The position numbers were made by a program, and so were the translations under genes. The notes under the pieces were generated by a model that saw only the letters and a list, made by a program, of their open reading frames with translations, searched no databases and was not told the DNA's origin. Shown here one piece after another: positions 8,526 through 60,903 of a stretch of 64,000 nucleotides of DNA; positions within the stretch are counted from its first letter, which is position 1, and each line of letters starts with the position of its first letter. The stretch covers positions 9,223-73,222 of the forward strand of contig JAFZUW010000013.1 of the NCBI GenBank assembly GCA_017618195.1. The letters run 5' to 3'. This stretch comes from Lachnospiraceae bacterium. GTDB lineage: Bacteria > Bacillota > Clostridia > Lachnospirales > Lachnospiraceae.

Positions 8526-9326
8526 CTATGCTTCCGGGGCAATCGTACAAAGCTTTCCCCTGAGAATGTAGCCGATCTTTTCGTAGCATGCGTTCGACGC
8601 GGCATAGTCCGCATCGGTGTAAAGCATCGGCATATAGCCGGCTTCTCTTGCGATGTTCGTCACCTGATAAACAAGGTTCTCCGCATAATGCTTTCTGCGC
8701 TCGCCGAGGCTCGTGTACACAAGCCCGATCACCGCCATATCGGCCACCGGGTGCCAGGTACAGCTCGAAACGTTCTTCCCTTCCGCGTTCTGCCAGAAAT
8801 AAATGCCGCGGTTCTTCAGGGCTTCCTCGGCTTTCCTGCGGTACGCTTCCATGCTCTCGTGATCCATGTCGATGTCCCGGTGGAACAGGTCCATAAACTC
8901 GACCGCTTCGTCAATATCCTCATCCGGGTTCGGCTGATGCAGGCACCCGTCGGTCGGCGTCGGCGCGATGGAAACGGGGCAGTCATACGCGAACATGTTC
9001 GTCTCAACGGCAAATGCCACGCCGTCCTTCTTAGCCCTCCGGGTCAGGAAATCCGCCAACTCATAGCGGATGTTGAAACGGTGCTTTCCGTCCATCAGAC
9101 CGTTCTCCCGAAGAAGCCCGTACAACTTCTCGAGTTCTTCTGCGGATGCGTCCTCAGCGGTCCAGATCCATACCGGGAACGGATCTTCCGAGAAGCAGAT
9201 GATCATCCTCTCGTGGTCCGTCAGCAGAAGCGTGTTGGTTCCGCCGAGAAGCCTTGTTAAAACGCTAAATGTGTATTTGTCCCTGCTTAATAAAGCGTAA
9301 TCCTTCTCATTTGCAAAAGAATCCAT
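8526..9326 (-). CDS. GNAT-family N-acetyltransferase (long form)
   Basis: C-terminal acetyl-CoA-binding-like region (VIGLVYTSLGERRKHYAENLVYQV...YEKIGY). RBS AAGGAG. Confidence 0.6.
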   Translation of the reverse strand: MDSFANEKDYALLSRDKYTFSVLTRLLGGTNTLLLTDHERMIICFSEDPFPVWIWTAEDASAEELEKLYGLLRENGLMDGKHRFNIRYELADFLTRRAKKDGVAFAVETNMFAYDCPVSIAPTPTDGCLHQPNPDEDIDEAVEFMDLFHRDIDMDHESMEAYRRKAEEALKNRGIYFWQNAEGKNVSSCTWHPVADMAVIGLVYTSLGERRKHYAENLVYQVTNIAREAGYMPMLYTDADYAASNACYEKIGYILRGKLCTIAPEA

Positions 9327-11010
9327 CTTCGAGTCTCCTTAAAAATACCGCTACGCCGTCCTCGTCGTTTGAGAGCGTTACGGCGTCCGCTTTTGTTTTG
9401 ACCTCGGGAAGCGCGTTCGCAACCGCCACGCCGAGTCCGCATTTTACGATCGGCTCGATATCATCGTTATCGTCGCCGAAATAGACCGCCTGTTCCGCGG
9501 GAATTCCCGCGTTTTGAAGAAGCTGAAGGATGCCGTTCCATTTGGTCGCGGTGCGCGCCATAAACTGGATCAGTTTCCTGTCCGCAACCGTGCAGTACAC
9601 GTCGTCCGGCATCGGTACGGCAAGGCTTTCCGGAGGCATGTCCGGATGACTCGCAAGAATTTTATAAACCGCATCCCGTTTTGCAACTCCCGCAAGATCC
9701 TCGGTGACAATCGGCTGCCAGATCGGAATGTCGATATTCGAGTATAACCCGGACTCCGCTTCAATCGAAATGACCGTTCCCGGGATTGCTTCCAGTTCGG
9801 CAAGGATAGCGGCGGCACTTTCCGTTGAAATCGCATTGGCCTCGGTTCCGTGGGGCGTAACCGAACGCGCGCCGTTCAGCGTCACAACCGAAGTAACGCC
9901 GAGCGCGTCACGGTATTCGGTAATGGCGCGTTCCGGTCTCGCCGAAGCGATAAATACCTGCGCGCCCGCTTCCTGCCAGTCGGAAAGCACCTTCTTCGTA
10001 TCGTCTGTGATGCTCTTATCGGAATGTAAAAGCGTACGGTCCAGATCCACAATAATCGCCCGGTACGGCTGGATTGTGCGGTTCCAGATTTCGTATCCTT
10101 TCTCCCATGTTTCGACCGCGAACGGACGCCGGCTGTCCCCGATCCGGTTCGCGTATTCTTCGAGAAAACGGAGGAACGGCATCAGGTGCTCCCGCGCCGT
10201 AAGAATCTCCTTCATGATGACTTTGGTCCAGACCTTTGCCTGCTCATATTGTGCAGACTTCGTGAGCGATTCCGCATATCCTTTTACATCAAATGTGACT
10301 CTTCTCTCATCGACCGAAACCTTGCCGTCATCACTGACCTCCAATATCACATACGGTACCGTTCCGGCAAGGCAGTCAAGCGGAAGTCCGCAGGAACCGG
10401 GGTTGATCAGAACAATGCGTCCGTCCTTCGAGCGGTAGCTCCACTGGATATGCGTGTGTCCGAAGATGTATACGCCGTCCGGGAGTTCCCGAAGCCTTTC
10501 CTGAAGCATCTCGTCAGCGTCATTGTCCTTTCGGATGCCGTTGTCCAGCTGTTCTTTCGTCACAGGGGCGTTTCCGTACTTCTCCCCGAACAGAAAGGAA
10601 CTCCAGTGCGTTCCCTCAATCTTACCGAGGAAAGCCGACCTATCGTGCGCAATATGAATTGAGACCCCGCTGCATGCAATATCAATCGTGTGCGGCAGAG
10701 CCTCCAGATAATCCCGGTTTTCCTTCGGTACGGCGCGGTAAGAGTAGTAAGAAATCTGCATCTGGCCGTCCGTCCAGGTTTTCGGATCGGTTCCGTTCAG
10801 CTTTTCGAGATATGACTCCTCATTGCCTCTTACAATATAAGCGTTCGGCATTTCCCGGATCACTTTCAGGCATTCGTTCGGATACGGTCCGGAAAGGCAG
10901 TAATCTCCGGCAAATATGTAGCCGTCCGCCCCCTGCTTTGCTGCATCCGAAAGCACTGTTTCAAGCGCCTGAAGGTTTCCGTGAATATCGGCTAGTACGG
11001 CATATTTCAT
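9307..11010 (-). CDS. Fusion protein: calcineurin-like metallophosphoesterase (N-terminal) + Cof-type HAD-IIB phosphatase (C-terminal)
   Basis: N-terminal MPE motifs: ADIHGN, GDY, GNEE, GHTH. C-terminal HAD motifs: VDLDRTLL, IASARP, FGDDNDD. RBS AGGAG. Confidence 0.8.
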   Translation of the reverse strand: MKYAVLADIHGNLQALETVLSDAAKQGADGYIFAGDYCLSGPYPNECLKVIREMPNAYIVRGNEESYLEKLNGTDPKTWTDGQMQISYYSYRAVPKENRDYLEALPHTIDIACSGVSIHIAHDRSAFLGKIEGTHWSSFLFGEKYGNAPVTKEQLDNGIRKDNDADEMLQERLRELPDGVYIFGHTHIQWSYRSKDGRIVLINPGSCGLPLDCLAGTVPYVILEVSDDGKVSVDERRVTFDVKGYAESLTKSAQYEQAKVWTKVIMKEILTAREHLMPFLRFLEEYANRIGDSRRPFAVETWEKGYEIWNRTIQPYRAIIVDLDRTLLHSDKSITDDTKKVLSDWQEAGAQVFIASARPERAITEYRDALGVTSVVTLNGARSVTPHGTEANAISTESAAAILAELEAIPGTVISIEAESGLYSNIDIPIWQPIVTEDLAGVAKRDAVYKILASHPDMPPESLAVPMPDDVYCTVADRKLIQFMARTATKWNGILQLLQNAGIPAEQAVYFGDDNDDIEPIVKCGLGVAVANALPEVKTKADAVTLSNDEDGVAVFLRRLEDGFFCK

Positions 11011-51510: not shown

Positions 51511-52809
51511 TCATTTCCAGTAAAAAATACCCGGCAGGTCTTCGGGAAAATACGCATAAAACTCGGCATTTTCCGCAGCCTGAGCCTTGGGAACATCTAT
51601 TTTCACGTAAGTATAGGTATATTTCTCCCTGTCATTTTTCCTTTCCGTGAGATTCCCGTTATCATCATACAGGTATTCCGTTTCCACGGGGGTTATGCCG
51701 AGGTATATCTCCGACACTTTCACAACACGCCCGTTTTCGTCAAACTCCGGGGCGTAGGAGTATTCCAATACTCCGAACACAGTCTTCTTCTCGGAAATGA
51801 TGCGTCCGTCCTTGTCATACTCACACTCCGAAATTGTTGTCTCTCCGTTCTTCGGATCATTTTCATATGCCTGATAGACACTCTTTGTTACCAGAATACC
51901 GCGTTCCGTTTCCTCATACTCATAAGAGATTCTCGATTTCACAAAGGAGCCCTGCGAATACTCTTCTTTGATGATCCTTCCGTCCTTATCATATTCCCTG
52001 ACGCCGGTGTGGTCAGCGGAATACCCTCCTTTTGCGTAGATTTTCTCTTCCCGTCCTTCGTTAAAATACGTCACGTAAAGCGTCAGTTCTTTTTTCCCGC
52101 CGTCTTGCGGAGAGTCATAACTTCTTATGACACATCCTTCCGCATTGCACTCATTGTTTTTTACGATAACGCTTTCGCCGGCTGTCCCGCCGACGTTTTC
52201 CCTCTTTTCCTCCAGGACAACATGCCCATACGCATCATAGGAATACAGAGTGACCGTTTCCGTATAAGGCGTGGATGCGCTCTCGTGCTGAACCGTCAGA
52301 CTCAGAGGTCTTTCCTGCTCATCATACTGCGTCGCTTCCACATGGAAGTAAGTGTCGCATGATTCGTTCTTCACCTGAAAACGGATTCTGCCGTCCGGCA
52401 GAAACTCTTTTGTTATGATTTCCTCATCCGCCGTTTGGGTAACTCTCGTAATCGGGATTCCTTCGTCGTAATAGTACGAATACTCATAGGTTCCTTTTTT
52501 CGCGTCACTGTATATCACATACAAAAGCCGCCCCTTTTCGTCATACTCGCACCGGAACACGAGCGACTCCCTTCCGGCGGAATCGGTACGGAATTCCTCC
52601 GTAAGAAACCACGGCCCCCTGTCCGTCTCAGCGGAAGCCTTCTTCCCCGCTTCGGGCTTCCCCTTCCCTGGCTTTTCCTCACGGAAAATGGAAACCATCA
52701 GCACAATCCATGCCGCGATTACCGCTACGCAGATTCCGGCAATCGCCGTTGCGATCTTCTGTTTCCTGCCGAACTTATTTTTTAAATTCTTCCCTGCTTT
52801 TCCTTTCAT
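51511..52809 (-). CDS. Membrane-anchored protein with YD/RHS-like repeats
   Basis: N-terminal TM helix (IAGICVAVIAAWIVLMVSIF) followed by at least five Y/F-D-x-x-G-R/N-x repeats (EYDEKGRLL, EYDKDGRII x2, EFDENGRVV, LYDDNGNLT). The gene has low-GC composition. Confidence 0.6.
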   Translation of the reverse strand: MKGKAGKNLKNKFGRKQKIATAIAGICVAVIAAWIVLMVSIFREEKPGKGKPEAGKKASAETDRGPWFLTEEFRTDSAGRESLVFRCEYDEKGRLLYVIYSDAKKGTYEYSYYYDEGIPITRVTQTADEEIITKEFLPDGRIRFQVKNESCDTYFHVEATQYDEQERPLSLTVQHESASTPYTETVTLYSYDAYGHVVLEEKRENVGGTAGESVIVKNNECNAEGCVIRSYDSPQDGGKKELTLYVTYFNEGREEKIYAKGGYSADHTGVREYDKDGRIIKEEYSQGSFVKSRISYEYEETERGILVTKSVYQAYENDPKNGETTISECEYDKDGRIISEKKTVFGVLEYSYAPEFDENGRVVKVSEIYLGITPVETEYLYDDNGNLTERKNDREKYTYTYVKIDVPKAQAAENAEFYAYFPEDLPGIFYWK

Positions 52810-52882: not shown

Positions 52883-52941
52883 CATTTTCCTTCTTTTCGT
52901 GATAAAATGTGAATCTTTTTTGCAAAAAGGGCAATCTGCCT

Positions 52942-52969
52942 TTACACTCTTTTGAAAAACCTTTATAAT
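52942..52969 (+). promoter_or_regulatory. Promoter of the VTC-DUF4956-CotH operon
   Basis: TTACAC, 16 nt, TATAAT on the plus strand. Confidence 0.5.
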
Positions 52970-53057
52970 GCTATCGTAAACGGCAGTCCGTGCCTGTTGC
53001 AATTGTGTGCGGAGGCGGTGCGGCCGTCTTTCGAATTCGGTTTTCGGGGCGTAATTT

Positions 53058-53792
53058 ATGAGGTTTTTACGGTATCAAAATCCATTTGCAAAGAAGAAGG
53101 GAAGGCATGAGATTAAAATTCTTCTGACCTATCCGCAATACATGGAGCTTCGCGCACGGGTTTCCGGCATCCTGACCCCTGATCCGAACATGCCGGGTCC
53201 CGAGGGCTATCTGATCCGGAGCGTTTACCTCGATACGATTCGAAACGACGCCTACTACGAAAAAGACAGCGGCGTGGAGCACCGGAACAAATACCGGATA
53301 CGCGCCTACAACGGCAGCGATTCCTATATCATGCTCGAGAACAAAGAGAAGATTGACGACCGGATCATAAAAACCGGGGCGAGGATCACGCGGGCGGACT
53401 ACGACGCGATCCTGAAGGGCGATTTCTCCGCACTCGGAGCATACGACGACCCGCTCTGTAAGGAAGTTCTTGCGAAGCATACTTCCGCCGGGCTTTCGCC
53501 GAAAGTGATCGTCGAGTACTACCGTGAAGCGTTCATCCATCCGCTTTCGAGGGTGCGCGTCACATTTGACCGCCTGATTGCGGCGGGTATGAACACGCTC
53601 GACATGTTCGACGAAAACCTGCACACCTCGCCGGTGTTCGAAAAACGCGAGGTCGTTCTCGAAGTCAAATACGACGACGCCTTTCCGATGTACTTAAAAC
53701 AGCTTCTCACCAATAACGGGATCCGGCTTGCGGTTTCCAAGTTCGTCCTGTGCACCGAGAAACTGAAAAACAACTATACCGTATTACGATAA
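53058..53792 (+). CDS. VTC-domain protein (polyphosphate-polymerase / triphosphate-tunnel-like)
   Basis: RHEIKILL start of the tunnel fold, followed by YLDT..ND.YYEK, YRIRAY and LENKEK in the order typical of bacterial VTC-domain proteins. Confidence 0.7.
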   Translation: MRFLRYQNPFAKKKGRHEIKILLTYPQYMELRARVSGILTPDPNMPGPEGYLIRSVYLDTIRNDAYYEKDSGVEHRNKYRIRAYNGSDSYIMLENKEKIDDRIIKTGARITRADYDAILKGDFSALGAYDDPLCKEVLAKHTSAGLSPKVIVEYYREAFIHPLSRVRVTFDRLIAAGMNTLDMFDENLHTSPVFEKREVVLEVKYDDAFPMYLKQLLTNNGIRLAVSKFVLCTEKLKNNYTVLR

Positions 53793-53803
53793 GGAGCATC
53801 CAC

Positions 53804-54466
53804 ATGTCAGAATATATTGACGAAATCAAAAGCCTGATGGGTCAGGCTGATTCCCTGAGCAGCACGACGCCCGCCCAGATCATTGCCTGCCTCACTTATA
53901 CGATGCTTTGCGCCGCAATCATCTATTGCATCTACCGCTTCTTCTACCGCGGCGCCTGCTACAGTGAAAACTTTGCCGTGCTCCTTGTTCTTGTTACGCT
54001 TATCACGGCGATGATCATTCTGACCATCAGCTCAAGCGTCGGACTTGCGCTCGGCACGATCGGCGCGTTGAGCATTATCCGCTTCCGTTCCGCTATCAAG
54101 GATCCGCTTGACGTCGGATTCCTGTTCTGGGCGGTTGTTGCCGGACTGACTACCGGTGCGGGCATGGTTCCGTTCGCGGTAATCGGTTCCGTCTTCATTG
54201 CCGTCGTTTATATTCTGCTGACCTTCCTGCGCACCTCGCGGGGCACGTATCTGCTTGTGATCCGCTACACGGATGAAGCTTCCGACGAGGTAATGCGCAT
54301 CGTTACTTCGCTGAAGGGACGTTTAAAGAACAAGTCCCTCTACAAGGAAGAGACCGAGCTTACCGTTCAGATCCGCTTCCGCGGTACGGATACGCCGTTC
54401 ATGAAGGAACTGACGGACCTTTCGGGCGTGAACAGCGCGGTTTTAGTGGAATTTACCGGCGAATAA
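53804..54466 (+). CDS. DUF4956-family membrane protein
   Basis: Three or four TM helices with LSIIRFRSAIKDPLDVGFLFWAVVAGLTTG. RBS AAGGAG. It lies 11 nt after the VTC gene. Confidence 0.7.
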   Translation: MSEYIDEIKSLMGQADSLSSTTPAQIIACLTYTMLCAAIIYCIYRFFYRGACYSENFAVLLVLVTLITAMIILTISSSVGLALGTIGALSIIRFRSAIKDPLDVGFLFWAVVAGLTTGAGMVPFAVIGSVFIAVVYILLTFLRTSRGTYLLVIRYTDEASDEVMRIVTSLKGRLKNKSLYKEETELTVQIRFRGTDTPFMKELTDLSGVNSAVLVEFTGE

Positions 54467-54508
54467 ACCGTTCTTTTTCAAACATATCTTATATTGGGGG
54501 AGATACAC

Positions 54509-56917
54509 ATGGAAAAAGGAAAATCAAACAAAATACCTTTGTTTCTGGCCCTGGGGCTTTTCGCCCTGCTTGCCGTGATCATCGTTCTTGCGAAGAGAAG
54601 CGGAGAGGGTCCCGCGGCTCCGACCGTAGCGCCTCTTCCGGAGCCTACCGCCGCCGTTCCGCCGTCGCCGCATACGCAGACGCCTGACTACACGGGCGAC
54701 AATTTCACTTTCACGGACGACATGGGCGATATCGTTCTTTCGCACAACAGCTACTTCTATTCGGAAAATATCACGTTAAAGATTTATTCCCGAAAAGCCG
54801 GAACAATCTGTTACACGACGGACGGCTCCTGTCCGACCGCCAAATCGACCGTCTATTCCGCCGAGTCGGGTATTTCCCTGATTGCATCACGCGGGGACGA
54901 TCCGAAAGTATACTGCGTTCATGCCAAAATTTTTTATGAAGACGGTACGGAATCCGACGAGATCGTTCACACCTATCTTCTCGGTAAAAACGTAAACAAG
55001 CGGTATGATAATCTTCTGATCTTCTGTATCAGCGGCGAGCCGAAAGACCTGACGGCGTCTCCGGACGGAATCTTCTTCGGACTGAACTACGAGCAGCGCG
55101 GCAAGGCAAGCGAGCGTCCGGTTTATGTGGAAGTACTGAACCGCGCGGGATCATTGATCAACGCCCAGAAGCTCGGTGTCCGCATCAACGGCGGATACAA
55201 CCGACAGAATTCCCAAAAATCCATGAAATTCTTTGCCCGGAAGAAGTATTCTCCCGATTCCGGCAACGCATACCTGAACTGCTTTGACCTTTTAAGCGAA
55301 GACGGTACACAGATCGTACGCTATGACAAATTCGTGCTCCGCGCGGGCGGCAACGACTTCCGCTTTGCGTTCTGCCGTGACGAGCTCAATATGATGCTCG
55401 CGAAGGATGCCGGATTTGACGATTATGAGCCGGTATTCCCGGCAATCGCTTACATGAACGGTTCCTATTTCGGCTTTTACTGGGTACACGGCTCCTACTG
55501 CGACGAGTTCTTCAAGCGCCGTTACGGTCCGTCTCCCGCAGAGCAGGCCGCAAAGGACGAAAACTTCAGCGAAGGTGAATTTGTCATCATCAAAGGCACC
55601 GACACGAAGAAGAAGCCGGACGACGATGCCGATCCGATCGAGGAACAGCTTGTTGAAGAGTTTAACGCCGCTTATGCGAAGTTTGCTTCGAAGGATCTGA
55701 CCAAGAACTCCGAATACCAGGCACTTCAGAAGTTCATGGATGTCGAGAACTATCTCGACTATATGGCATATAACATCTATCTGTGCAACAAAGACTGGCC
55801 GCACAACAACGTCACGTGCTACCGCTACGTTCCCGCCGAAGGCGAGAGTTACGGCGAAGGCGTATACGACGGCCGCTGGCGCCACCTGCTGCACGACATC
55901 GACTATACGCTCGGCCTGTACGGTCAGGACGAGGTAATGAACTCCTACGATACGTTAAAGCACGTTATGACGATTGACGGAGACCGCCATTCCGACCTGT
56001 TTGAGGCCTTGATGGAGCGTGCCGACTGCCGTGAATACTTCATCAAAAAATCTTTGGATTACGGTGCCGGAGCACTTTCCTATTCGTCCGTCGTATCGAA
56101 GCTCAACATGATCACCAAGAACCGTTCGGGTGAGATGCCGTATTATTACGATTATCTCGTTTCCTTAAACGGACCGGACGTTTCGTGGGTAAATGTAAAC
56201 CAGCTTGAGGGCAATCTCGAAACCATTCTCGATTTTGCCGAGCGGAGAGCGGACCGTTCCGCGACCTACCTGAAATACGGCTTCAACCTTTCCGGAAGCC
56301 GCTACAATCTTCTGATCAAGAACCCCGATGGCGCACGCATTCAGGTCAACAGCTATAAGACCAAGGACGGCGGTGATTTCGCCGGAATCTACTTTACCGA
56401 TTATGCAACCGACGTTTCGGCGGAATTCGTAAGCGGCAAGGCATTTGACTACTGGGAGGTAAACGGAAAGCGCGTCGACAGTAAGACCCTTAAGATTACC
56501 TCAAAGGACGTTTCGGACGGCGCCGTCAATATCGTCCTTCACATCAAAGACGCTCCGCTTGATCACCTTACCATCGCTTCCTTCTGCGCGAAGGACGGGG
56601 ATTACATTACGATTGAGAACCTTACGGGCGCCAAAGCGGACCTGACCGGCTATGTTCTTTCGGACGGCACTTATGAGTATCCGTTTGAATCCGGCGACAG
56701 TATCGGCGCAGGCGAAAGCATTACCGTATTCGGAGAGAACGCCGCCGCACCCGAAGGATCTCGGAAAGCAATCTTCAAGCTTTCCGAAGGCGACGTGATC
56801 ACTTTAAAGAATGCTTCGGGCCAGACGGTTGATTCCGTCACGGTTCCGAATGCGCACTCCGGATTCATTTTCAAACGGAATCCTTTCACGGGACGGTTTG
56901 AAGAGGTTCAGCCCTAG
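54509..56917 (+). CDS. Membrane-anchored CotH-family (atypical kinase fold) protein with a C-terminal lamin-tail domain
   Basis: N-terminal TM helix. CotH-type motifs are VLRAGGNDF, NKDWPHNN and RWRHLLHDIDYTLG. The C-terminal ITIENLTGAKADLTGYVLSDG is LTD-like. The start is trimmed to MEKGKSNK, preceded by GGGGGAG. Confidence 0.8.
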   Translation: MEKGKSNKIPLFLALGLFALLAVIIVLAKRSGEGPAAPTVAPLPEPTAAVPPSPHTQTPDYTGDNFTFTDDMGDIVLSHNSYFYSENITLKIYSRKAGTICYTTDGSCPTAKSTVYSAESGISLIASRGDDPKVYCVHAKIFYEDGTESDEIVHTYLLGKNVNKRYDNLLIFCISGEPKDLTASPDGIFFGLNYEQRGKASERPVYVEVLNRAGSLINAQKLGVRINGGYNRQNSQKSMKFFARKKYSPDSGNAYLNCFDLLSEDGTQIVRYDKFVLRAGGNDFRFAFCRDELNMMLAKDAGFDDYEPVFPAIAYMNGSYFGFYWVHGSYCDEFFKRRYGPSPAEQAAKDENFSEGEFVIIKGTDTKKKPDDDADPIEEQLVEEFNAAYAKFASKDLTKNSEYQALQKFMDVENYLDYMAYNIYLCNKDWPHNNVTCYRYVPAEGESYGEGVYDGRWRHLLHDIDYTLGLYGQDEVMNSYDTLKHVMTIDGDRHSDLFEALMERADCREYFIKKSLDYGAGALSYSSVVSKLNMITKNRSGEMPYYYDYLVSLNGPDVSWVNVNQLEGNLETILDFAERRADRSATYLKYGFNLSGSRYNLLIKNPDGARIQVNSYKTKDGGDFAGIYFTDYATDVSAEFVSGKAFDYWEVNGKRVDSKTLKITSKDVSDGAVNIVLHIKDAPLDHLTIASFCAKDGDYITIENLTGAKADLTGYVLSDGTYEYPFESGDSIGAGESITVFGENAAAPEGSRKAIFKLSEGDVITLKNASGQTVDSVTVPNAHSGFIFKRNPFTGRFEEVQP

Positions 56918-56950
56918 AACAACAGAAGGGCTTTTTCCCGGAAATGAATA

Positions 56951-56980
56951 AGGGCAGCCATTTCGGCTGCCCTTTGTTAT
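56951..56980 (+). terminator. Rho-independent terminator after cotH-like gene
   Basis: AGGGCAGCC-atttc-GGCTGCCCT followed by TTGTTATT. Confidence 0.75.
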
Positions 56981-57008: not shown

Positions 57009-58049
57009 CTACTGCGCTACGGCGTTATCGAAGATTACCTTCAATGCAAGATCATAAAGCATGCTCTTACGGATTCTTTCGGCGGTATAATCCTGCTCGA
57101 ACTTAGCCTTATCCGTATATCCGTAACGGGACATGTAAACCTCGATCATCGAGTTGTAATTCTCTTCGGTAAGCGAAATCTTTTCCTTCGAAATGATTTC
57201 TTCAAGAACGATCTCCTGCTTAACGGTATCCTCCGCGGAAGCCTTCATCTCCGCGTAAAACTCCTGCAGGCTCTTGGTATATCCGCTTTCCTTTACGTAA
57301 TCCTCAAGCGACATATTGTTCTGTGATGCAAGCGAGTTGTAGTACTTGAGAAGATCCTGATAGCATTCGTCAACCTTTTTCTCATCAAGCTTGTCAAACG
57401 TTGTGGATGCAACAATCTTATCAAGCAGTTCACCCTTCACTTCGGTTTTGAACGATGCTTCTCTCGATGCCAGAATGTATTCCTTCGCATAATCCTTATA
57501 TGCCTGAATGGTCGTAATCTTTCCGTCGGTATAATCGCTGATCAGGCTGTCGGTCAGCTCGGGAAGGACTTTCTTCTCGATCGCATTGATCTTAACAGTA
57601 AATACGACTTTCTTGCCGGCATATTCCGGATAATACTGCTCGGGGAAAGTAAGATTCAGCGTAACCGTATCGCCGACTCTTGCTCCGATCAGACCGTCCT
57701 CGAATCCGGGAATAAACTGGTTCGCACCGATCTCAAGATGCGTTCCCTTTGCGGTTCCGCCGCTGAACGGCTCGGTCTGTCCGTCAAGGATGCCGGAATA
57801 ATCGATGTTAACGACATCGCCCTTCTGTACGGGAGTTTCTTTACGCTCTTCTAACGTTTCGTACTTCAGGTAGCTGTTCTGAAGACTTGCAAGGAGCGAT
57901 TCCATATCCTCTTCCGTTACTTCAATCGTCTTATTTGTGTACGTGAGCCCCTTGTACTCTCCGAGTTTGAACCTGCTCTTTTCTTTGCAGGCGGTAAGTC
58001 CGACGATCATAAGGCCGGCGATCAATAACATAAGTAATCTCTTCTTCAT
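57009..58049 (-). CDS. Lipoprotein with trigger-factor-like FKBP PPIase and C-terminal chaperone domains
   Basis: Lipobox VGLTACKEK. The FKBP region is VQKGDVVNIDYSGILDG...FIPGFEDGLIGARVGD. A trigger-factor C-domain-like helical tail follows. The start is trimmed to MKKRLLMLL, preceded by GGAGGAAC. Confidence 0.75.
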   Translation of the reverse strand: MKKRLLMLLIAGLMIVGLTACKEKSRFKLGEYKGLTYTNKTIEVTEEDMESLLASLQNSYLKYETLEERKETPVQKGDVVNIDYSGILDGQTEPFSGGTAKGTHLEIGANQFIPGFEDGLIGARVGDTVTLNLTFPEQYYPEYAGKKVVFTVKINAIEKKVLPELTDSLISDYTDGKITTIQAYKDYAKEYILASREASFKTEVKGELLDKIVASTTFDKLDEKKVDECYQDLLKYYNSLASQNNMSLEDYVKESGYTKSLQEFYAEMKASAEDTVKQEIVLEEIISKEKISLTEENYNSMIEVYMSRYGYTDKAKFEQDYTAERIRKSMLYDLALKVIFDNAVAQ

Positions 58050-58069
58050 GGTTCCTCCGGGACGACTTA

Positions 58070-59329
58070 TCATCCCTTTCCTTTCTCTTTCATCTTTTCT
58101 TTCAATCTATCGTGAATGCGATACATTTCGTTGGGAATACCGCTCCCGATGCTCTTCAGATAGAATATCGTTGCGCTGCAGACTGCTTCCGCTCCCGCTG
58201 TGCCGTCCTCAAGCGACATGTTCCGAATGACCGGCAGCGGCGGGGTCGGTATGTGGTCACGGAACGGTTCCGTGAAGTCGGCAATGAAAACCGCCGTCTC
58301 TATCGGGTGTTCCGCCATGTCAACCGATCCGTCACAATGGTTTCCGATGGCCCGAAGCATCTCCGCATCGCGGATTTTGTAACGCTCTCTCGCAAGAATG
58401 CGTCCTGCGGGTCCGTGATGGATGCCCTTGATCGGAAGCACCTCTTCACTGAGACGCACCCTGTGCTTCTTCAGATAAGCTTCCGTTTCCTGCTCGCCCA
58501 TACTCTTCGCACAGTCGTGCAGAAGACCGGCAATCAAAGTCTTGCGGACAAGCTGCTTCTCCTGCGCAGTACCCTTCAGCCCTTCCTTTTCAAGCCACTC
58601 CGACATCAATTCCGCCGACCAGAACGCCACACCCTTTGAATGGTTTAGCCGGTGCGCGCTGATCGTTCCGGAAAGCTTCTCCGTGAGTTCCTCATAGCGT
58701 TTCCACGTGTCTCGGCGGATTGCATACGGTTTGCATCCGTACAGTCCGAAACGGCGGATGTACGTGTCGGTCCGCTCCGCCAACGCGGGATGCGGTCCCT
58801 GCGCCTTTGCGATCTCACTGCGGATATCCGTCGAGGAAACATCCCGAAACGGAATGGAAAGCGCCTTGAAAACGCCGCCGAACTCTTCGTTTCTTTTCGC
58901 AAGCAGCTCCTGAAAATGCGACTCGTCCGAGCTTCTTACCGCAACCAGTATGGTCGCAAGCGAAGCGATCGTCTTCGGCTCGTGCCAGGTAACGAAATCC
59001 TTCAGCGAGTCTTCCCCGATGATATAGTATAACGTATCGCCGGGATGTCTCTCATGAAGAAGCGTAAGCGTATCGGATGTATAGGAAACCCCTTCGCGTT
59101 CGAATTCCGTAAGGTCGAGCTCAATCCCTTCTCCTACGGGAAGCGCCAGAGTGATCATCATCAGGCGGTGGACGTCTTCCGTAACGGCTTTGGTCTGTTT
59201 GTGAGGAGGAATCCGTGCCGGCATGATCCGGACCATATCGAGTCCGAACTGTTCCTTTGCCGCCCGGGCGATTGCGATATGCCCGAGGTGGATCGGATCG
59301 AAGGTTCCTCCGAATATGCCTACTTTCAT
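58070..59329 (-). CDS. nadD: Fusion: nicotinate-nucleotide adenylyltransferase (NadD) + HD-domain YqeK-like phosphohydrolase
   Basis: The N-terminal part has GIFGGTFDPIHLGH and ISSTDIR-like VSSTDIR. The C-terminal part has HSKGV...LLHDCAK HD motifs. The start is trimmed to MKVGIFGG, preceded by GGGGAGGAG. Confidence 0.85.
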   Translation of the reverse strand: MKVGIFGGTFDPIHLGHIAIARAAKEQFGLDMVRIMPARIPPHKQTKAVTEDVHRLMMITLALPVGEGIELDLTEFEREGVSYTSDTLTLLHERHPGDTLYYIIGEDSLKDFVTWHEPKTIASLATILVAVRSSDESHFQELLAKRNEEFGGVFKALSIPFRDVSSTDIRSEIAKAQGPHPALAERTDTYIRRFGLYGCKPYAIRRDTWKRYEELTEKLSGTISAHRLNHSKGVAFWSAELMSEWLEKEGLKGTAQEKQLVRKTLIAGLLHDCAKSMGEQETEAYLKKHRVRLSEEVLPIKGIHHGPAGRILARERYKIRDAEMLRAIGNHCDGSVDMAEHPIETAVFIADFTEPFRDHIPTPPLPVIRNMSLEDGTAGAEAVCSATIFYLKSIGSGIPNEMYRIHDRLKEKMKEKGKG

Positions 59330-59499: not shown

Positions 59500-60903
59500 A
59501 TGAGTGATACGTTAAAAGAAAACAAAATGGGCATCATGCCCGTCAACAGGCTGCTTGTCGGCATGGCGGTTCCGATGGTTCTCTCCATGCTGATGCAGGC
59601 ACTTTACAACGTTGTCGACAGCATCTTCGTCGGCCGTTTCGACCAGAATGCCCTCTCGGCGGTAACGATGGCATTTCCCGCACAGACCTTGATGATTGCG
59701 CTTGCCGCAGGTACCGGCGTCGGCGTAAACGCGCTGCTTTCCTACAGTCTCGGCAAGAAGGATTACGCCTCCGCCAACAAAGCGGCCACGCACGGCATAT
59801 TCCTCTCCCTCTGCTCCGCGTTACTTTTCTGCATTCTCGGTCTGACGCTTGCGGAATCGTTCTACCGCTGGCAGATTTCCGCAAAGGAATGGCGCGAGAA
59901 CCCCGAAACATGCCGGCAGATCATCCGCTACGGTAAAGATTACTTATCAATAGTCACCGTATTCAGCCTCGGTATCTATCAGCAGGTAACGCTCGAACGT
60001 CTTCTGCAGTCTACCGGCAAGACGTTTTACGCGATGATCACGCAGACGACCGGCGCGGTCCTGAATATTTTCCTCGATTACATCCTCGTATTCGGTAAGC
60101 TCGGATTTGCACCGATGGGTGCAAAGGGTGCCGCAATCGCTACCGTAATCGGACAGTGGACCGCAATGATTTTCGCATTGATCTTAAATGTCTGCAAAAA
60201 CAAGGAAATCAGCCTCTCCTTCCGCGGCTTCCGCATTGACTGGGCGGTTATCCGCACAATCTTCCGCGTCGGTCTGCCGAGCATTATCATGCAGGCGATC
60301 TCGTCGGTTGTCACATTTGTCCTCAACAAGCTGTTAAACGGCTTCTCACAGGTTGCGGTCAACGCGTTCGGAATCTATTTCAAGCTGCAGAGCTTCATCT
60401 TCATGCCTGTTTTCGGCGTGAACAACGGTATGGTTCCGATCATTGCCTACAACTACGGTGCGCGACACAAAAAGCGTATCCTTGATACGATGAAACTGAG
60501 TTATCTGATCGCGGGAAGCATTATGGCGGTCGGAACGATTGTCTTTCTCGCATTTCCGAAGCAGCTGCTGTCGCTGTTCTGTAAGCCCGAGTCGCTCGAT
60601 GATCTTGCGCGCTACGGCGTACCGTGCCTGCGGATCATCTGCGTACACTTCGTGGTCGCCGCATTTTCCATCATTACGATTTCGGTGTTCCAGGCTCTCG
60701 GAAACGGTTTCTACAGCATGATCGTCTCGCTGTGCCGCCAGCTTGTCATCCTGCTTCCGGTTGCGCTCTTTATGGGTCTTGTGATGAAGAACGTGGATCT
60801 GGTATGGCTCAGCTATCCGATCGCGGAAATCGCATCCGCCTCAATGTGCGCATATTTCCTGGCAAGAATTTATAAGAAGAATCTGAAGGATCTGCCGGAC
60901 TGA
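59500..60903 (+). CDS. MATE-family efflux transporter
   Basis: 467 aa with 12 TM helices. The N-terminus PVNRLLVGMAVPMVLSMLMQALYNVVDSIFVG is typical of MATE proteins. Confidence 0.9.
   Translation: MSDTLKENKMGIMPVNRLLVGMAVPMVLSMLMQALYNVVDSIFVGRFDQNALSAVTMAFPAQTLMIALAAGTGVGVNALLSYSLGKKDYASANKAATHGIFLSLCSALLFCILGLTLAESFYRWQISAKEWRENPETCRQIIRYGKDYLSIVTVFSLGIYQQVTLERLLQSTGKTFYAMITQTTGAVLNIFLDYILVFGKLGFAPMGAKGAAIATVIGQWTAMIFALILNVCKNKEISLSFRGFRIDWAVIRTIFRVGLPSIIMQAISSVVTFVLNKLLNGFSQVAVNAFGIYFKLQSFIFMPVFGVNNGMVPIIAYNYGARHKKRILDTMKLSYLIAGSIMAVGTIVFLAFPKQLLSLFCKPESLDDLARYGVPCLRIICVHFVVAAFSIITISVFQALGNGFYSMIVSLCRQLVILLPVALFMGLVMKNVDLVWLSYPIAEIASASMCAYFLARIYKKNLKDLPD

Follow-up and report, generated by a model that had tools for sequence, protein, structure and literature searches.

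A VTC-DUF4956 gene pair and its exchangeable exported partner, a CotH-family protein, in a rumen Lachnospiraceae genome

Three adjacent genes lie in a 64,000-nucleotide stretch of DNA from an uncultured rumen Lachnospiraceae bacterium (assembly GCA_017618195.1, contig JAFZUW010000013.1; this whole stretch is hereafter called the window). They encode a protein with a VTC domain, a polytopic membrane protein of the DUF4956 family, and a membrane-anchored CotH-family protein ending in a lamin-tail domain (LTD). As judged from gene content and order, our comparison across genomes shows that the obligate unit is the VTC + DUF4956 pair, whose exported partner varies: at least CotH and the Cthe_2159 family occur as alternatives. 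Whatever its mechanism, the module is a unit with exchangeable exported partners and not an accessory of the Pel exopolysaccharide system, as the source genome shows. We regard it as possible, though well short of probable, that the pair is the core of a polyphosphate (polyP) synthase-exporter serving the exported partner, which in the window would be a CotH kinase with a surface polymer as its target.

Distribution and partners of the VTC-DUF4956 pair

Co-occurrence was assessed in an even set of 151 genomes of the phylum, and 19 loci carrying the VTC + DUF4956 pair were examined. VTC and DUF4956 are found in exactly the same 21 genomes, belonging to 18 families, and in equal copy numbers. 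Wherever both genes were called, they are adjacent on the same strand, separated by at most 76 nt and often overlapping. CotH was detected in 18 of the 151 genomes, including 15 of the 21 with VTC. The third gene at the 19 pair loci encodes an exported CotH protein in 14 cases and a Cthe_2159 beta-helix lipoprotein in three (E about 1e-98), while two loci have neither. Where CotH is adjacent, the order of the genes takes three forms. Of the 15 adjacent CotH proteins, 14 clearly carry a signal peptide, a lipobox or a transmembrane (TM) segment, and the start of the fifteenth (L040) was probably miscalled. The spore-coat-type CotH proteins of the sample, 355 amino acids (aa) long, have none of these features and are not located beside VTC.

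The major clades are the same in the VTC tree and in the DUF4956 tree, and a clade of their own, supported at 100/100, unites the Cthe_2159-type loci. In this variant module, present at loci L034, L036, L037, L060 and L061 (Paenibacillus and others), the VTC and DUF4956 genes are followed by the Cthe_2159 lipoprotein gene and accompanied by a divergent two-component pair, an OmpR-type response regulator with a histidine kinase. We found no paper linking Cthe_2159 to VTC. Over the whole set, an OmpR-type response regulator and a histidine kinase are adjacent to the pair in seven of the 19 loci, and independent gene calls in Paenibacillus agree.

The order VTC-DUF4956-CotH also exists in Nonomuraea (Actinomycetota), and all three families were matched in the control genomes of Bacteroides thetaiotaomicron, Corynebacterium glutamicum and Methanosarcina acetivorans; the Bacillus subtilis control genome has a CotH match only, with neither VTC nor DUF4956. 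Several triads are located within exopolysaccharide loci, namely in Pseudobutyrivibrio xylanivorans, Planococcus, Clostridium perfringens and streptococcal pel loci. On plasmid pNP95 of P. xylanivorans MA3014 (L062), the triad sits in an exopolysaccharide cluster with GT61, GT2 and GT4 glycosyltransferases, acyltransferases and pyruvyl transferases. On a Planococcus maritimus plasmid (L063), it is followed by a 689-aa protein without Pfam match, a HEAT-repeat protein and a chitin-synthase-like GT2 protein. It is thus highly improbable that the three genes are simply neighbours without a shared function: such a view is opposed by VTC and DUF4956 always occurring together and side by side over 18 families, by CotH adjacency in three gene orders, by the same triad in Actinomycetota, and by the tight spacing and coupled ribosome-binding sites (RBSs) described below.

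The combination has been published before. A 2010 paper included it among the genes of the C. perfringens NELoc-2 locus (PMC2879425), Whitfield et al. reported it in 2020 as an accessory part of pel loci in Gram-positive bacteria (10.1101/768473), and a genetic study in Streptococcus intermedius (SIR_1592-1594) followed in 2025 (PMC12345266). A preliminary description of the window, made from its sequence alone, had stated that no function is assigned to this combination. It was right in that no function has been reported, but the combination itself was already in the literature (10.1101/768473; PMC12345266; PMC2879425). According to the S. intermedius study, triad synteny is not found outside pel loci (PMC12345266). 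This remark does not hold. No recurrent pel-type neighbour exists among the 19 loci examined, and PelG (PF16933) is unmatched in the source genome, which is 98.8% complete; the module is therefore independent of Pel here. A role as Pel accessory in this genome was rejected on the same ground, the flanking genes encoding a YD-repeat protein and a peptidyl-prolyl isomerase (PPIase) lipoprotein. The window triad is a Pel-independent instance of the published module, and both this independence and the obligate pair correct the picture given in the literature.

The source assembly (Lachnospiraceae, 2.75 Mb) has its nearest public relative in a metagenome-assembled genome from goat omasum (L052), whose gene order is the same throughout the neighbourhood. 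Relative to this genome, dN/dS is 0.064 for VTC, 0.091 for DUF4956 and 0.106 for CotH (0.101 for NadD, for comparison), so all three genes are maintained by purifying selection. A second triad is carried on contig C26 of the source genome (L009: 5387-9060, minus strand). Its VTC and DUF4956 proteins are 35% and 33% identical to the window copies, from which they diverged anciently. Its CotH protein (732 aa) is anchored at both ends, with a TM anchor at the C-terminal one, and its kinase domain is split by an insert of ~190 aa, G/S/D-rich and of low complexity, part of which is S/G/K/R-rich and loosely resembles the Ser-rich substrates of Bacillus CotH. There is also a third, lone CotH gene on contig C27 (L010: about 8580-10941), without a VTC/DUF4956 pair beside it, which encodes a lipoprotein (signal ending in LIAC) with two LTD domains, CHB_HEX_C_1 and CotH.

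PPK1, PPK2 and Ppx-GppA have no match in this nearly complete genome, which seems to lack the canonical polyphosphate enzymes. As a result, the two VTC proteins are the only candidate polyP synthases found in it. In the sample, PPK1 is present in eight of the 21 VTC genomes versus 16 of the 130 others, so VTC does not simply replace PPK1 there. This suits a specialised role better than one in storage.

Operon and proteins

The coordinates of the module, its domains and its neighbours are collected in the table.

Table. Features of the window around the VTC-DUF4956-CotH module (window coordinates)
Feature	Position	Strand	Details
YD/RHS-repeat protein gene	51511..52809	-	432 aa; divergently transcribed, membrane-anchored
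Sigma-70-type promoter TTTACA-17-TATAAT	52941..52969	+	11/12 match; ~90 nt 5' of VTC start
VTC-domain gene	53058..53792	+	244 aa; ORF calling + Pfam
DUF4956 gene	53804..54466	+	220 aa; ORF calling + Pfam
CotH-family gene	54509..56917	+	802 aa; ORF calling + Pfam
Predicted signal-anchor/TM segment, CotH protein aa 9-27	54533..54589	+	hydropathy 3.03 over 19 aa
CHB_HEX_C_1 (PF13290) / Fn3_assoc Ig-like domain	54758..54865	+	Pfam E 3.6e-7 / 3e-5
CotH kinase domain (PF08757) with N427, D429, D463	55178..56251	+	Pfam E 5.8e-21
Lamin-tail domain LTD (PF00932)	56594..56845	+	Pfam E 6.5e-12
Bidirectional intrinsic terminator hairpin	56950..56974	both	stem 10-11 bp, 7 GC
PPIase lipoprotein gene	57009..58073	-	convergent; FKBP + trigger-factor C-terminal domains
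MATE-family gene	59500..60903	+	2.6 kb downstream

Sequence signals support the assignment of the three co-directional genes to a single operon. The intergenic gaps are 11 nt (VTC/DUF4956) and 42 nt (DUF4956/CotH). The AAGGAG RBS of the DUF4956 gene overlaps the VTC stop codon (TAA, 53790-53792), 7 nt before the ATG at 53804, and the GGGGGAG RBS of the CotH gene is located 6 nt before the ATG at 54509. The promoter is the top match among seven such sites in the 7 kb between 51500 and 58500. This number is not raised relative to shuffled sequences (6.0), so the call derives from position and match quality only. The terminator hairpin is common to the operon and to the convergent PPIase gene, and a terminator scan of the region found no comparable plus-strand terminator inside the operon. 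A riboswitch or structured leader found no support: the operon leader has no Rfam match and an unremarkable structure (fold z-score 0.56).

Most of the preliminary description stood up to this examination. It had proposed three plus-strand genes bracketed by one promoter and one terminator; its gaps of 11 and 42 nt are both correct, and its TTACAC-16-TATAAT promoter is the site at 52941-52969 read one base over. The named families were recovered by profile searches, with VTC, DUF4956, CotH and LTD all matched in Pfam (E 4.8e-34 to 6.5e-12; scoring used the longer ORF starts 53750 and 54494 for the DUF4956 and CotH open reading frames, ORFs). The synteny on which its three-gene module depended was found in 21 of 21 genomes for VTC and DUF4956, with CotH adjacent in 14 of 19 loci. 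The topology also agrees: VTC without TM segment, DUF4956 polytopic, and CotH with one N-terminal TM segment and predicted to lie outside.

The VTC protein matches Pfam VTC (PF09359) over profile positions 2-234 of 235 (E 4.8e-34, 118.4 bits versus a cut-off of 23). Single-sequence phmmer searches of the VTC and CotH proteins against PDB sequences returned no match, and family profiles were needed. A profile of 22 bacterial VTC homologues retrieved the catalytic domain of yeast Vtc4 (3g3q) with E 7.9e-23, ahead of the non-catalytic Vtc2 with 1.7e-12 and Vtc3 with 3.8e-8. An AlphaFold2 (AF2) model (pLDDT 88.3, pTM 0.85) has a predicted closed beta-barrel tunnel fold closest to Vtc4: the top Foldseek match is Vtc4 3g3r (E 8.5e-15, TMq 0.72), 3g3q follows with E about 1e-14, and non-VTC tunnel enzymes (YgiF, CYTH cyclases, thiamine triphosphatase) reach 5e-8 or weaker. 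The protein thus clearly belongs to the Vtc4 subfamily: catalytic Vtc4 is a closer match than Vtc2/3 by sequence and than non-VTC tunnel enzymes by Foldseek.

Invariant tunnel residues are R16, E18, K20, K78, R80, R82, E94, K96 and K105, as well as Y154, R156, R167, D171, E202, K204, S227 and K228. Eleven of these (R16, K20, R80, R82, K96, Y154, R156, R167, E202, S227, K228) are invariant both in 22 and in 34 sequences and align with Vtc4 R196, K200, R264, R266, K281, Y359, R361, R373, E426, S457 and K458, the Vtc4 numbering being derived from the alignment offset. The source for which Vtc4 residues matter in catalysis is reportedly Hothorn et al. in 2009. An active member of the polymerase subfamily is a credible prediction. 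As no TM segment is predicted by hydropathy in the VTC protein, a soluble, cytoplasmic location is supported.

The second protein matches Pfam DUF4956 (PF16316) with E 4.4e-13 (49.8 bits versus a cut-off of 30.6), as do all 23 aligned homologues. Hydropathy and the AF2 model suggest an N-terminal helix, four to five TM helices and a soluble C-terminal domain. The latter (aa 148-216) is modelled as a beta-alpha-beta-beta-alpha-beta, ACT-like domain. Confidence is low where the model covers the membrane (pLDDT 55-65), and in Foldseek only the C-terminal domain finds matches, to ACT domains and to MgtC C-terminal domains (7qa5/2lqj, E about 5e-3, TMt 0.55). NCBIfam MgtC/SapB matches the window protein weakly (E 6.8e-4, far under the cut-off), and Pfam MgtC is weakly matched by 13 of 23 family members (best E 1.1e-5). 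These weak matches hint that DUF4956 may be a distant MgtC relative. Residues Y44, G87, R93, F94, R95, G114 and G118 are invariant, and the positive-inside rule suggests that the R93-F94-R95 motif and the C-terminal domain face the cytoplasm. Neither Foldseek nor profile searches matched DUF4956 to a Vtc1/Vtc4-type channel (membrane subunits of 7ytj/8i6v), the TM part of the model being of low confidence, and a Vtc1-like channel was rejected for want of such support. According to Pfam, an SPX domain and a Vtc-type TM domain are absent from all three proteins.

In the CotH protein, the single N-terminal TM segment is preceded by the basic MEKGKSNK and followed by a Pro-rich linker (PAAPTVAPLPEPTAAVPP), an arrangement which predicts that the rest of the protein lies outside the membrane. 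The kinase domain is that of a divergent family member, with HDIDY in place of PWDYD as read from the alignment, and scores about 75.8-78 bits in Pfam (cut-off 23.8), versus 140-250 bits for other partner CotH proteins. Because of this divergence, jackhmmer started from the window copy missed most partner CotH proteins, which were recovered through Pfam coordinates and clustering; as a single query for related loci, it returned only two relatives. A profile of 15 partner CotH proteins matches B. cereus CotH (5jd9) with E 4.5e-46. D429 (in NKD) aligns with the catalytic D228 of B. subtilis CotH and D463 (in HDIDY) with the metal-binding D251, a mapping which relies on the 23-residue spacing. 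Both D228Q and D251A are catalytically dead in the B. subtilis enzyme (PMC7821199). The window protein thus keeps both catalytic aspartates, and N427 as well.

The YD/RHS-repeat protein is syntenic in L052 yet only 53% identical there, indicating fast evolution. The downstream MATE-family gene has homologues no more than five genes away from the VTC pair in four of the 19 loci, which may be due to chance, MATE genes being common.

Possible functions of the module

The tentative reading favoured here is that VTC and DUF4956 form a synthase-exporter core, with CotH as a swappable exported partner. The VTC enzyme would dock on the cytoplasmic face of DUF4956, where the ACT-like domain and the invariant R-F-R motif are predicted to lie, and would build a phosphate chain from ATP, to be passed through the membrane. 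There is no ATP on the outer side, and the anchored CotH protein would act there with or on this chain and would phosphorylate or decorate a surface polymer, glycan or wall protein, while its CHB_HEX and LTD domains could hold the substrate. This reading is favoured because a soluble polymerase-type enzyme is obligately paired with a membrane protein, because the third partner is exported (17 of 19 loci) and because there is no ATP outside the cell. It is also favoured because the enzyme residues are intact, because the two VTC proteins are the only polyP-synthase candidates found in the source genome, because dN/dS is 0.06-0.11, because triads occur in exopolysaccharide loci and because the S. 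intermedius DUF4956 and CotH deletions alter both Pel level and aggregation.

A narrower version of this scheme, in which the pair is a synthase-translocase and extruded polyP is the phosphate donor of exported CotH kinases acting on surface glycans or proteins, is quite unlikely. Two points count against this version and the favoured reading alike. No CotH-fold kinase is known to use polyphosphate. In S. intermedius, deletion of the VTC gene (SIR_1593) caused no reported change, unlike deletions of its neighbours (PMC12345266), a silence which lowers the odds of both.

Further observations weigh against the synthase-exporter. DUF4956 shows no likeness to the yeast Vtc1/Vtc4 channel and appears to resemble MgtC instead, a protein known to regulate and not known to form a pore. 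Six of the 21 VTC genomes have no CotH match and, conversely, an exported lipoprotein CotH (542 aa) is encoded in G013 (L057), a genome without VTC or DUF4956 match. We found no biochemical study of any bacterial VTC, DUF4956 or exported CotH protein in the searchable papers. Finally, the S. intermedius mutants move Pel in opposite directions: deletion of DUF4956 raises Pel and deletion of cotH lowers it, aggregation being reduced in both cases (PMC12345266).

This opposite effect looks regulatory, and it brings in a different explanation, namely a sensing device in which the tunnel enzyme hydrolyses or converts a triphosphate ligand and the ACT-domain DUF4956 relays the cytoplasmic state to the exported enzyme or to a polysaccharide machine. 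Tunnel enzymes do include triphosphatases and cyclases, found here as Foldseek neighbours; ACT domains are ligand sensors; and the two-component pair adjacent to seven of 19 loci fits as well. The VTC protein is nevertheless clearly of the Vtc4 subfamily and carries the polymerase residues, other tunnel enzymes matching at least seven orders of magnitude more weakly. Moreover, we know of no precedent for such signalling, and we consider the sensing device rather unlikely.

We attribute a similarly low probability to a membrane-tethered polyP synthase whose product is kept inside the cell, for storing phosphate or energy or as a local buffer at the membrane, with the MgtC-like partner regulating it and CotH being chemically independent and using another phosphate donor. 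In its favour, PPK1, PPK2 and PPX are unmatched in the source genome. It would also require no channel likeness of DUF4956, it is consistent with CotH being dispensable for the pair in six of 21 genomes, and it accords with the apparent resemblance to MgtC, which has a regulatory function linked to the homeostasis of ATP and phosphate (PMC12345266). A purely cytoplasmic role leaves unexplained the exported third gene in 17 of 19 loci and the recurrence of the triad in surface-glycan loci, and the coexistence of VTC with PPK1 in eight of 21 genomes argues against a plain substitute.

The last alternative retains polyP export. The core would supply polyP as a surface or matrix polyanion, and the third protein would bind, anchor, cap or trim the polymer instead of using it as phosphate donor. 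It would account for the replacement of CotH, in three of 19 loci and in a fully supported separate clade (100/100), by a beta-helix carbohydrate-binding family which is not a kinase, and it suits the divergent HDIDY motif and extra Ig-like binding domains of the window CotH. PPK-independent extracellular polyP has in addition been reported in B. cereus, a species without VTC (PMC13484657). The conservation of N427, D429 and D463 under purifying selection instead argues for catalysis. We know of no polyP binding by CotH or by the Cthe_2159 family, and this alternative seems unlikely.

The preliminary description had suggested a single envelope-associated machine handling polyP. Its families, topology and tight operon were all recovered here, strong synteny was seen in other genomes, and both enzymes have intact catalytic residues. 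The suggestion is weakened by a DUF4956 protein that appears MgtC-like and shows no likeness to the Vtc1 channel, by a CotH partner that is not obligate, and by the silent VTC deletion in S. intermedius. If the synthase-exporter reading were true, the module would represent a third, yeast-type bacterial route to polyphosphate and the first mechanism for placing polyphosphate outside the cell, and it would explain how secreted kinases work without ATP.

Comparison with known systems

The closest known relatives are the pel-locus triads, in which the same three families are contiguous and CotH is predicted to be secreted. Their DUF4956 protein has been described as an MgtC-like TM region with an ACT domain, much like that of the window. 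The window differs in having no contiguous pelDEADAFG locus and no DUF4832 gene annotated beside the triad, and its CotH protein has CHB_HEX and LTD domains in place of the FN3 of pel-locus CotH. The C. perfringens NELoc-2 and Planococcus clusters share the order VTC-DUF4956-CotH, followed there by the 689-aa protein, the HEAT-repeat protein and the GT2 synthase. They thereby continue into a chitin-synthase-like glycosyltransferase system, whereas the window operon ends at its terminator and has no glycosyltransferase gene nearby.

Bacillus CotH (5jd9/5jda) shares the kinase fold and both catalytic aspartates with the window protein. It is a protein of ~360 aa without signal peptide, acts in the mother cell on the spore-coat proteins CotB/CotG, uses ATP and has no VTC or DUF4956 neighbours, whereas the window CotH is multi-domain and predicted to be membrane-anchored and extracytoplasmic. 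MgtC/SapB/YhiD proteins appear to resemble DUF4956 in their architecture of about five TM helices and a C-terminal ACT-like domain, as well as through weak profile and fold matches. However, the window protein falls in Pfam DUF4956 and not in MgtC, and DUF4956 has its own invariant GALSI(V/I)RFR motif and is always paired with a VTC gene.

Finally, the eukaryotic VTC complex (Vtc4/Vtc3 or Vtc2/Vtc1; 3g3q, 7ytj, 8i6v) has a tunnel domain of the same subfamily with the same residues, and is likewise obligately associated with a membrane partner. In contrast, the window VTC protein has neither an SPX domain nor a membrane domain fused to its tunnel domain, while DUF4956 is unrelated by sequence to the three-helix domain of the Vtc1 type, and by fold to the extent that the weak model can tell. 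The destination would also differ, as the eukaryotic complex targets the vacuole and the target of the window module would be the cell exterior.

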